From the NCBI GenBank assembly GCA_039815375.1, contig JBCBZJ010000044.1:1-15054 (forward strand): a DNA stretch of 15,054 nucleotides, given 5' to 3'. The position numbers are program-made. Numbering within the stretch: position 1 is the stretch's first letter; each line of letters starts with the position of its first letter. The DNA comes from Verrucomicrobiota bacterium (lineage in GTDB: Bacteria > Verrucomicrobiota > Verrucomicrobiia > Opitutales > Coraliomargaritaceae). Of this stretch, positions 12,001 to 15,000 are shown piece by piece.

Positions 12001-15000
12001 AATGCCGGTTTTGAGCTCACCGGCCCAAAGGTTCGCGGTAAAGGTTCTCTCGCGATCCAGTTTAACCAGTTCGGCGACTACCCACTGGTGAAACGCATCC
12101 AGGGACAGGTCGACCTCGTGCTCAACGCCTATGCCAAGACCAGCCTGGGCGAAAAGAAAAAGAACTATACCTGGACCGCCCTTTCCATCGATGCTCAATA
12201 CGGCACCGAGACTGTCTTCGAAGTCATCCCGATGGAGCTGGAGTATATCGAGCAGACCTTTGCCGACTTCGGCTCCAATGTCTTCACCGGTGACGCACCT
12301 TCGATCGCAGGAGGCGTCGCTCCCTTCGGGACCTATGCCGGTGCACCGGCAGGGGGTGGTGCTCTCGTGACTCTGGTCAACGGTGCCATGGTCGAGCTGG
12401 TTCTTGCGCCTCGAGGCAGTGATCAGGACCACGGCACGCCGGAGCAGATTGCCTCGCTCACCACCATTCTTGCTTCCGATATTCTCGAACTTGACGATGG
12501 CCGTATTCTTGTCGTTTGGGCGGAGCCCTCAGGCTCGGTCGATCCGAATGATCCCCTCGCTCCTAATGTTGTAAAATTCTCGGTCAGTGACACCAATGGC
12601 GAAAACTTCTCAGCCGCAGCCAACGCCTTTTCCCTAAGCGGTTCGGCCGCGGATTTGCACCTCGTTCAAAGTGGCAGCGCAGTCTACCTCGTCACGCGAA
12701 TGATGATCACCGGCAATGGACCGCCCATCCACCAGCTCTTCGGCCAAACCTTCGACCGCGTCCAGCTGAACTTCGGTAACGCTTTTAGCTTCCTCGCTCA
12801 GGAAACCACCGGAATTTCCGAGCTTGCCGTCACCGGACCCGGCTCGACCGGCGCAGGCGACATCGCCGTCTACTTCATCGCCGGTGATGACACACTGAAA
12901 TCACTCCGCTGGGCAGGCGGTTCCCCCACCGGTCTCGCCACCATCGACACTGAGATTGATGCCGGACTCGCAGCAACCTCCACCAGCACTGAATTCTTCG
13001 TCATTGCGAGCGCCGAGAACGATGAGCTTCGCCTCTACACATCCGACAGCGGTACCGCGAACAACGGCACTGAAACCAGCTCGGTCGTGGCCGAAGGAGT
13101 CGACCCGCGCGAGGCGCAACTGGTCCTTCAGGACGTCACTCAGGATGGCGGCCTGCTTTACAGTTTCACCCAGGGCACTCTGGGCGGCAGCGAAATCTGT
13201 TTCCTCTTCATCGACGATACCGGTGCGCCACTCTCGGAAGGCGTGCAGCACCTGACGCAGAATAACTCCGGCACCTACTCTCAACTGAGCATCAGCGTGA
13301 TCGATAGTGAAACCACTTTCCTCTATGCGCTTTTTGAAAACAGCCCACCCGAAATTCGGGTCTTTGAAATCAGCGTTACCGAAGGCAGCTCGGGTAACGA
13401 TTCCGATGAGGACGGGATCAATGATCTCGGCGAGCTGCAAATTATCGATGCCGATTCTGAAGACTCCATCGCTACCCTGGCCGATGTCATTGGCACGGAT
13501 GACTTCGACCTCGACGGCTTTGATAATGCCACCGAAATTGAGCTCGGCAGCGACCCGGCAGATGAATTTTCTGTCCCCGTCGTTGAGGGTCTTCCAACCG
13601 TCAGCGTTGCGGCGGCCCTGCCGGATGCCGGCGAGCTGGATACGGTTGTCGGACGCTTCGACATCAGCCGTAGCGGCGCGACCGACGCCCCCCTCACCGT
13701 GAATTACACCACCGATGGAACCGCGACTGCCGACACAGACTACACTGCCTTGCCCGGATCGCTCGAGATTCCGAGTGCAGCTTCGCTGGCCAGTATCGCC
13801 GTCACGCCGATTCGCGATAACCTTTCCGAAGGTGTCGAGACTGTCGTTCTCACCATTTCCAGTGACGACGCCTACACCATCGGCAACATCGGCAGCGCTA
13901 CCATCAATATCGGCGACCTGCCGGCGGATGCCTGGCGCTTCCTCAACTTCGGAGCCGATGCCAATACCCTCTCTGCCGGCGACCTGGCCGACTTCGATAA
14001 AGACGGCATCCCCAACCTTCTGGAATACGCCCTTAAGCTCGATCCCCGAATCGAGGGGCAGGTCGGATTACCGGTTGTGAGCATTATCGAAAACGAAGTC
14101 ACCGATGAGCGCTTCCTCACCTTCAGCTACACGGAAAACGATGATGGCGAGGACCTGATCTATGAAGTCGAAGTCAGCCCTGACCTCGGTCCGGACAACT
14201 GGACTTCGGGCAATGGCGTCACCGTCGAAGTCTCGCGTGTCCCGCTGGTAGACGGCGGAACAACCGTCACCGTCCGCAACACCACACCCATCGGCAACGA
14301 CGGTAGCGCGTTTATGCGACTCTCTGTCGAGCGCAGATAATCCCAATCACGGTAAAACACGCCAGCAATAAGCCGCTTAGGCGACCAGGGCACATGGCTT
14401 GTCTGTCAGGGCGACGGTCATGTGTTCTTTATGCCCTTACTCAGCCTTCAGTTGCCCAGCAGTATATGGCTGAGTCCAGCGCATGGTCCTTACACGCATA
14501 GAAGGCGCCAAAAATTGCTTCCTATGTTTCTACAAAATTATGCAATCGGATAAGATGTGCGCTCTGGGCAAGTCTATGACGCTGACTTTTCCAGCAGAGC
14601 TGGGAACCGCTTATCTCCTCTAACACACGCTTATGTTCTCCTCGTTTAGTTTCCTGTTTTCGCCGTAGTGGATTAGCATCAATTAGCGTTCATTAGCGGT
14701 TAAAAAATACGTCGGATTCCTGGTTCAAGATTCAACCGTGCTGGTGGTTTAGCTCTGAGAAAATCTCTGATGCTGACTTTTCCAGCAGAGCTGGGAACCG
14801 CTTATCTCCCCTAACATACGCTTATGTGCTCTTCGTCTAATTTCCTGTTTTCGCCGTAGTGGATTAGTGTCCATTAGCGGTTAAAAAATATGTCGGATTC
14901 CTGGTTCAAGATTCAACCGTGCTGGTGGTTTAGCTCAGAGGAAATCTCTGATGCTGACTTTTCCAGCAGAGCTGGGAACCGATTATCTCCCCTAACATAC

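Follow-up and report, generated by a model that had tools for sequence, protein, structure and literature searches.

Positions 14068-14340 (+ strand) of the window, by which we mean the whole 15,054-nucleotide stretch of DNA analysed here, are the last 90 codons and the stop codon of the ORF 7219-14340, and they encode a small β-domain that belongs to a real, large and uncatalogued family. From its position, its predicted fold, its exchange with other end tags and its distribution, we tentatively read this end domain as an uncleaved, autonomously folded module that would tether its carriers to the cell surface. The carrier in the window is a 2373-amino-acid protein in which Pfam recognizes four CarboxypepD_reg domains and one Calx-beta; about 50 residues, including an Asp-rich loop, separate the latter from the end domain (Table 1).

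Table 1. The carrier gene of the window and its parts
Feature	Positions	Strand	Basis
Gene for a secreted multidomain protein with the end domain at its terminus	7219..14340	+	ORF list, Pfam, whole-length homologs
Signal-peptide-like N-terminus, ~22 residues	7219..7284	+	Reading of the translation and crude hydrophobicity rule
Isolated upstream copy of the Asp-rich, Ca-binding-type loop, with no β-domain behind it	13483..13608	+	jackhmmer, E 6e-4
Calx-beta immediately ahead of the end module	13639..13917	+	PF03160, E 3.2e-9, residues 2141-2233
Optional helical lead-in with one EF-hand/TSP3-like loop (W..F ... DxDxDG..NLLEY..LDP)	13918..14067	+	Conservation, model
End domain: predicted six-stranded FN3/Ig-like β-sandwich without G strand, with Y.V.S.DL..W and F.R	14068..14337	+	AlphaFold2, fold match, conservation

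The initial annotation had described a C-terminal β-domain common to about 25 unrelated secreted proteins of this genome. The existence of the family is confirmed, as is its mostly terminal placement, but both the number and the C-terminal position need revision: an iterated in-genome profile finds 34 copies, of which 24 are C-terminal, 7 N-terminal and 3 internal, with a gap in E-value from 6e-5 to 0.18 and the best reversed-sequence decoy at 1.1. This count is partly circular and the profiles were therefore rebuilt from other genomes only. Made from 155 outside copies, at loci that had themselves been found with queries from this genome, they recover 23 of the 34 at E<0.001 and 29 at E<0.05, with neither a non-member nor a reversed decoy at E<0.05; a profile of 149 outside representatives alone recovers 9 copies at E<0.01. 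Two forms of the domain, a long one (80-100 aa, usually with the Asp-rich loop) and a short one (65-75 aa), align with each other with 93% probability. The passengers in this genome are sulfatases, S8, M12 and trypsin proteases, FG-GAP, Ig/cadherin and LTD proteins, DUF1800 proteins and orphans. By a crude rule, 24 of the 34 carriers have a signal-like N-terminus, versus 497 of 1655 background proteins (p 1.7e-6). Most of the 10 carriers called non-signal either look signal-like by eye or miss their start. Among the N-terminal copies, six directly follow a signal peptide and one follows the Asp-rich loop, and two precede a region that occurs as an insert in a PilX-like protein (E 1.8e-22).

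The claim that the domain is outside Pfam and NCBIfam stands. For the copy in the window no Pfam family matches and NCBIfam gives at best E 0.023, and the best matches among 103 diverse members are weak: DUF3999 in Pfam (12 members, best E 6.6e-5) and TIGR04203 in NCBIfam (3 members, E 0.0018). The Atlas again returned Verrucomicrobiota clusters at 0.95 with no name attached, and the literature searched, mostly openly readable main texts, held no description of the domain. The 2804 relatives at E below 1e-3 given previously were not reproduced as such; a 140-aa module that comprises the Ca-type loop yielded 4513 representatives at E<=1e-3, a count that is inflated because the query includes the loop. 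A homolog search with the end-domain profile returned 27 proteins. In 145 of the 149 best representatives the last copy lies within 15 aa of the protein end, and 16 of the 149 have 2-5 copies in tandem; a terminal copy is present in 91 of the 93 carriers from 80 named loci (the best 80 of 413), and at 20 loci of other genomes of the phylum all 24 matches end at most 5 aa before the stop, the queries behind these position counts being mostly C-terminal copies, which may bias them. Among the same best 80 of 413 named loci, 79 are of Verrucomicrobiota lineage. Two profiles detect the domain in 65 and 70 of 151 genomes of the phylum, 71 when combined; copy counts per genome are lower bounds, as at most 37 candidates were scored in each.

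The AlphaFold2 model (pLDDT 92) consists of three short helices followed by six strands. Contrary to the earlier statement that there is no fold match, an FN3/Ig-like one was found: the best of 48,161 chains is the FN3 of a cytokine receptor (6nmy_D; Z 8.4, rmsd 2.6, 85 aligned residues), with C1-set Ig domains at Z ~7, i.e. within about 1 of the best match, and a Z near 8 means a common arrangement only. Foldseek has no match at E<=0.001. The structural alignments stop at residues 87-88 of β2-microglobulin and 328-329 of IgG CH2, which we take to lie before the G strands of these proteins, and in all the 132 C-terminal copies scored the chain ends 4-12 residues past a conserved Arg. Because the alignments stop there and the chain ends after this Arg, the predicted domain is a six-stranded FN3/Ig-like sandwich lacking the G strand. 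It thus shares the β-sandwich topology of fibronectin type III and C1-set Ig domains, but FN3 has seven strands, A to G. Conservation is highest at Y, L, W, F and R (among the 103 members, W in 91, F in 96, R in 92 and L in 87), and the pattern Y.V...W with F.R presumably recalls strands C, C′ and F of FN3.

This likeness raises the question of whether the end domain is just an ordinary accessory domain derived from FN3, i.e. a substrate-binding module, a spacer or a folding cap that was spread by domain shuffling and plays no role in localisation. Besides the fold, there are weak sequence matches to FN3 domains of sidekick-2, tissue factor and chitinase A1 (E 0.26-2.1; nothing in the search of solved structures is below E 0.06), the end-domain profile also matches four internal repeats in an FN3-rich protein (P0273), and 10 of the 34 copies in this genome are not C-terminal. 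PF00041, however, matches none of the 103 members at E<=0.1, and a profile comparison with the two complete FN3 domains of locus L214 gave nothing (two sequences). These true FN3 domains, which have their G strand, occur separately in the same proteins as the end domain. It is also difficult to reconcile an accessory role with a module that is usually in single copy and at an end, that is never found with a second end tag in the protease family described below and that is nearly exclusive with another, unrelated end module; nor is any substrate common to sulfatases, S8, M12 and trypsin proteases, GH18, sialidases, and FG-GAP and Ig adhesins. An accessory FN3 domain is thus, in our opinion, quite improbable.

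The three helices of the model correspond to a lead-in that precedes most of the long-class copies. In 51 sequences its N33 and P43 are invariant and W6, F11, D29, G30, L34 and Y37 nearly so. Like dockerins and the bacterial TSP3 repeat (PF18884), the lead-in has an Asp-rich D-x-D-x-D-G loop and then a helix, an association which we take to be the dockerin/TSP3-type pattern; judging from this loop pattern, it presumably binds Ca. PF18884 is matched by related repeats in other carriers, and the lead-in copy of the window has no Pfam match. Dockerins differ by having a duplicated Ca-binding loop-helix and a cohesin as partner; the lead-in has one loop and is optional, and nothing resembling a cohesin turned up as its partner, no search aimed at cohesins having been made. 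A probable function of such a loop, placed ahead of the end domain, would be to stiffen the junction. The same Ca-type loop is present in Amuc_1099-like proteins; homology between the end domain and this type of subunit was considered and rejected, since the loop is all that they have in common (hhalign 0.2% and 11.8%).

The strongest evidence for a targeting role is that the slot taken by the end domain is taken by other tags on related passengers. An illustration is provided by the metalloprotease-PA family: among the best 119 of 2446 homologs, 44 end in the end domain, 26 in a T9SS-CTD/FlgD-type tail (9 of these with PF18962; P0190, the one checked, passes TIGR04183), 19 in a DGFE-type tail (a label taken from the motif), 6 in an EF-hand tail and 10 in something else, while 14 have no tail and none has two end tags. 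Those passengers that were checked share 41-45% identity with the query. Another case is that of two adjacent paralogs of modest similarity (E 3e-6; 25% over 205 aa) situated at L214, directly ahead of an exosortase: one ends in the end domain (E 0.0015) and the other in a PEP-CTERM-like tail. Exchange with PEP-CTERM also concerns C41, whose region 28-245 shows 49% identity to a PEP-CTERM protein. A further candidate for such a swap, the C59/C37 pair, was dropped, as its similarity (31% over 182 aa) rests on repeats. As to the window protein, a different, tandem module terminates the two whole-length homologs nearest to it (41% identity), and the end domain terminates 11 that are more distant, 10 of which were found through that domain.

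A tandem, PPC-like end module was found in 5 of the 151 genomes, with 6 to 43 matches in each at E<=1e-20. Like the end domain, it is present in many copies, in Opitutaceae-type genomes, and ends unrelated secreted proteins; it is nearly always at the protein end, sometimes N-terminal, and usually paired. It differs in fold and in sequence: each pair is predicted to be of jelly-roll type, with a best Z of 7.3 to the C-terminal domain of Tk-SP, and no Pfam family matches. The two distributions are nearly exclusive, with zero copies of the end domain by three profiles in four of the five genomes and a few in the fifth, G060 (Fisher p 0.011 among PEP-positive genomes, a value that reflects few independent lineages and non-independent kin). 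Two proteins of G060 have the end domain internally and the PPC-like module at the terminus.

The slot thus behaves like a localisation tag, in agreement with that part of the earlier proposal which saw in the domain an export or surface-anchoring tag. Tag exchange fits export as well as tethering because the tail of the secretion system of type IX (T9SS) is both an export signal and an anchor, and by analogy with this tail both could be true of the end domain. The T9SS CTD of type A (PF18962/TIGR04183; RgpB) is indeed, like the end domain, a small β-sandwich that ends unrelated Sec-exported proteins, and it takes the same slot on one protease family. Beyond the slot, the analogy drawn in the initial annotation breaks down: the T9SS CTD is a seven-stranded Ig-like domain, versus six strands in the predicted model of the end domain, PF18962 (Por_Secre_tail) and TIGR04183 match none of the 103 members at E<=0.1, and the end domain also exists in N-terminal, fused internal and tandem copies. 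The top 50 of the fold lists contain FN3 and C1-Ig chains and no solved T9SS CTD, which excludes nothing, and SprA was matched in 0 of 5 genomes, control genomes being equally without a match. According to PMC4804311, PorU cleaves off the T9SS CTD and A-LPS takes its place; in contrast, nothing suggests cleavage of the end domain. A cleaved C-terminal sorting signal fits badly because N-terminal, internal and tandem copies exist, and the same copies agree with a binding module for which a free end is unnecessary. The alternative already mentioned in the initial annotation, a docking module instead of a signal, is therefore the better reading. By the features tested, the end domain is outside the T9SS CTD, PEP-CTERM and complete FN3 families.

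The other part of the earlier proposal, a link with the canonical type II secretion system (T2SS), did not survive the enlargement of the sample. In the 151 genomes, GspK was matched in 105, the Amuc_1098-type secretin in 110 (E<=1e-60) and PEP-CTERM in 92. If the end domain were a substrate tag of the canonical T2SS (GspC-M with GspK), one would expect it to follow GspK, and to a certain extent it does: GspK is present in 66 of the 71 domain-positive genomes (phi 0.48, in tallies where related genomes do not count as independent and whole families lacking both partners supply much of the signal), and our genome has, on contig C3, a gsp operon with GspD, GspK and pseudopilins. It had been stated that no GspK-negative genome has the domain. 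However, five genomes of genus g22 (G063, G078, G084, G087 and G120), 99-100% complete and two of them in a single contig, have 1-5 full C-terminal copies each and no GspK, either by NF037980 (E<=1e-5) or by PF21687 (E<=1). A strict dependence on T2SS is rejected because these near-complete genomes carry the domain without GspK; in addition, 39 GspK-positive genomes lack the domain. A T2SS tag is accordingly very improbable. The carriers in g22 are a GH18, a sulfatase and sialidases, and the scores of its secretins, close to the Amuc_1098 cut-off or higher, make the genus probably Akkermansia-like.

A better candidate for an export machine is the Amuc_1098-1102 (MUL2) secretin machine, a type IV filament system. 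The end domain would then be an outer-membrane export signal, recognised as a folded domain in the periplasm, possibly by a partner strand that fills the missing G position; N-terminal copies would serve proteins with an occupied C-terminus, or would act in trans, as in the RHS cassettes described below. The secretin is present in 66 of the 71 domain-positive genomes at E<=1e-60 (phi 0.43), and in all 71, including the five without GspK, after a looser look (phi 0.53) which was given only to the five misses, all of them split or contig-edge matches. In this genome an S8 protease with the end domain directly follows the Amuc_1098-like operon. In family f1 a large secreted gene is situated directly behind the secretin in 6 of 14 genomes, the other 8 being without one; the passengers differ, and all 6 end in the end domain. 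In G060 the same post-secretin slot is occupied by a giant protein with the PPC-like module. Replacement of a true export signal, that of T9SS, on the same protease also agrees with export by MUL2, as does PMC4960237, where no outer-membrane protein of A. muciniphila is more abundant than Amuc_1098. Finally, three N-terminal copies sit in a repeated RHS cassette composed of a conserved gene of 261-297 aa, a gene with the domain and TSP3-like repeats, an RHS toxin-like gene and small downstream genes, so that the toxin-like gene has a partner gene bearing the end domain.

Several observations weaken the case for MUL2. The secretin is nearly phylum-wide, with 44 secretin-positive genomes that lack the domain, and is thus weakly discriminating. 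A general linkage to secretins or pilins was looked for and rejected: in the fetched flanks (at most 10 kb) of the 80 named loci, a secretin is found in 0 and prepilins in 5, and outside f1 a carrier lies directly behind the secretin in 0 of 18 loci, although G081 has two carriers located two genes past it. As to the other signal-bearing RHS proteins here (C6, C31 and C54), none of their inspected neighbours is a partner that bears the domain. Moreover, recognition of two unrelated folds would fall to a single conserved machine. A complex prediction for the 140-aa module and the protein that opens the secretin operon, considered Amuc_1102/MUL2A-like on the basis of gene order, scored 0.00 (with its two first rows drawn from two genomes of a single genus), which is no answer and speaks neither for nor against. 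MUL2 is conserved and has been read as an attachment pilus, with no mention of a tag (PMC13174399); genetic studies of the mul genes exist for A. muciniphila, as cited in PMC13174399. Altogether, we regard an export signal read by MUL2 as possible but rather unlikely.

The closest match in distribution is with PEP-CTERM/exosortase (PF07589, PF09721), another C-terminal surface-sorting slot of the same genomes. PF07589 is found in 70 of the 71 domain-positive genomes (phi 0.73, with the same non-independence of kin), the exception, G122, having three exosortases, and 22 genomes without the end domain are PEP-positive: the distributions are nested. Both are absent from families f8, f10, f12, f13, f19 and f29. 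As described above for L214, the two tags are exchanged on paralogous passengers, but the end domain differs in being folded and in having no PEP motif, membrane helix or basic tail (none of the 34 carriers has a PEP-CTERM, lipobox or Tat motif). Carriers in this genome have a median length of 792 aa, versus 248 aa for PEP-CTERM proteins. A PEP-CTERM gene is directly upstream of 5 of the 34 carriers here, versus 6 of 1418 other genes, and of carriers in 3 of 6 g22 loci. A general adjacency to PEP-CTERM genes was nevertheless discarded, as only 1 of the 84 carriers from elsewhere (neither this genome nor g22) shows it.

With tethering as the preferred reading, the following scheme may be proposed. 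The passenger would cross the inner membrane on a Sec signal, as its sequence suggests, and reach the outside by some further route. The G-strand-less FN3-like sandwich would then bind a surface component and so hold the passenger on the envelope. Going by co-occurrence only, the likeliest ligand would lie in the glycoprotein and polysaccharide layer linked to exosortase and PEP-CTERM, and the end domain would serve, chiefly on large enzymes and adhesins, in place of PEP-CTERM anchoring and without a covalent bond. On the other side of the balance, 14 of the 119 protease homologs are tail-less and the match with PEP-CTERM rests largely on a few whole lineages. PMC10067855 reports sialidase activity of A. 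muciniphila both attached to cells and in the supernatant, the latter counting against a tether; this activity is not mapped to carriers.

A more far-reaching idea combines several of these elements in a tag-directed display system proper to Verrucomicrobiota: the MUL2 machine would export or display folded enzymes by capturing the end domain through strand complementation, some lineages would have swapped the tag for the PPC-like module, and RHS toxins would borrow the tag from a partner. At this point it is a speculation to which we give little credit.

What is at stake is how Verrucomicrobiota handle the large sets of exported enzymes with which they break down marine fucoidan and gut mucin; no explanation of how they get outside or stay attached was found in the literature searched. 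A tag recognizable in sequence would make the surface proteome predictable from genomes, in the way that the T9SS CTD does for Bacteroidota, and the end domain deserves a curated family model.

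The C-terminal position occupied by the end domain (the last 90 residues of the window protein) is one where tails interchange, and several other modules were found in it. A tandem PPC-like end module is present in five genomes, with 6-43 matches in each, and its distribution and that of the end domain are nearly exclusive. A third tandem end module, carrying a GWN motif, makes up the last 170 aa of P0299 and P0300, which are the window protein's nearest whole-length homologs; NCBIfam gives it no name. A short C-terminal tail, F.DGFE...W, takes that slot in 19 PA-domain metalloproteases within P0177-P0259, which are among the best 119 of 2446 homologs of one carrier of that type; two of the 19 are named as Acidobacteriota.

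In genome G122, an XrtC-like exosortase, scoring below the cut-off, is flanked by a PEP-like protein, by a paralog of the latter with the end domain at its end, and by two proteins on the opposite strand that each combine FN3 and the end domain. The window's own genome, G000, has four secretin loci, and two of its secreted proteins (on C57 and C11) consist of the end domain and a region that a PilX-like protein of 970 aa has as an insert within its chain. Another carrier is encoded two genes after this PilX-like protein.

Coordinates of the loci and features discussed
Feature	Location	Remarks
End-domain-only frame	G000 C62:135083-135352	89 codons, stop-to-stop; end domain at E 1.8e-7
Three-gene RHS cassette (L047)	G000 C2:60242-68714	
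Three-gene RHS cassette (L048)	G000 C50:18203-26991	
Three-gene RHS cassette (L049)	G000 C9:1746-9599	
DUF1800 protein	G000 C62:260511-262817	
DUF1800 protein	G000 C33:4191-9767	
DUF1800 protein	L186:363-3764	
Exosortase locus	L214:1680-7189 (G122)	
Tandem PPC-like end module	L065:11592-12413 (G060)	
Secretin locus	G000 C25	PilQ-like, then 3327-aa RCC1/CARDB giant
Secretin locus	G000 C3	gsp operon
Secretin locus	G000 C33	Amuc_1098-1101-like operon
Secretin locus	G000 C11	cluster rich in pilins
Secreted end-domain protein	G000 C57:16056-18205	
Secreted end-domain protein	G000 C11:221641-224553	
Tandem repeat, 181-bp unit	window 14573-15054	2.6 copies, 90% matches
Gene run	window 266-6755	- strand

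Around the window gene (7219-14340), the tandem repeat lies just 3′ and continues past the contig end; the gene run encodes a 797-aa fusion of an FAD oxidoreductase with a 4Fe-4S membrane domain, together with DUF547, DUF6503-like, PEMT-type methyltransferase, radical SAM/DUF3641 and HNH proteins. Elsewhere in G000, the end-domain-only frame consists of almost nothing but the end domain and has no start codon ahead of residue 55; it is probably a gene remnant and was left out of the 34-copy count for this genome.

The end domain also occurs at N-termini. In all three RHS cassettes, the first gene encodes a secreted conserved protein of 261-297 aa, matched by neither Pfam nor NCBIfam, the partner gene combines an N-terminal end domain with TSP3-like repeats, and the RHS protein bears a signal and a variable tip (DUF6883, Tox-SHH). 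Since all three DUF1800 proteins start with the loop (the Asp-rich, Ca-binding-type loop of the lead-in to the end domain), followed in two of them by a scored domain copy, N-terminal placement is conserved in this family.
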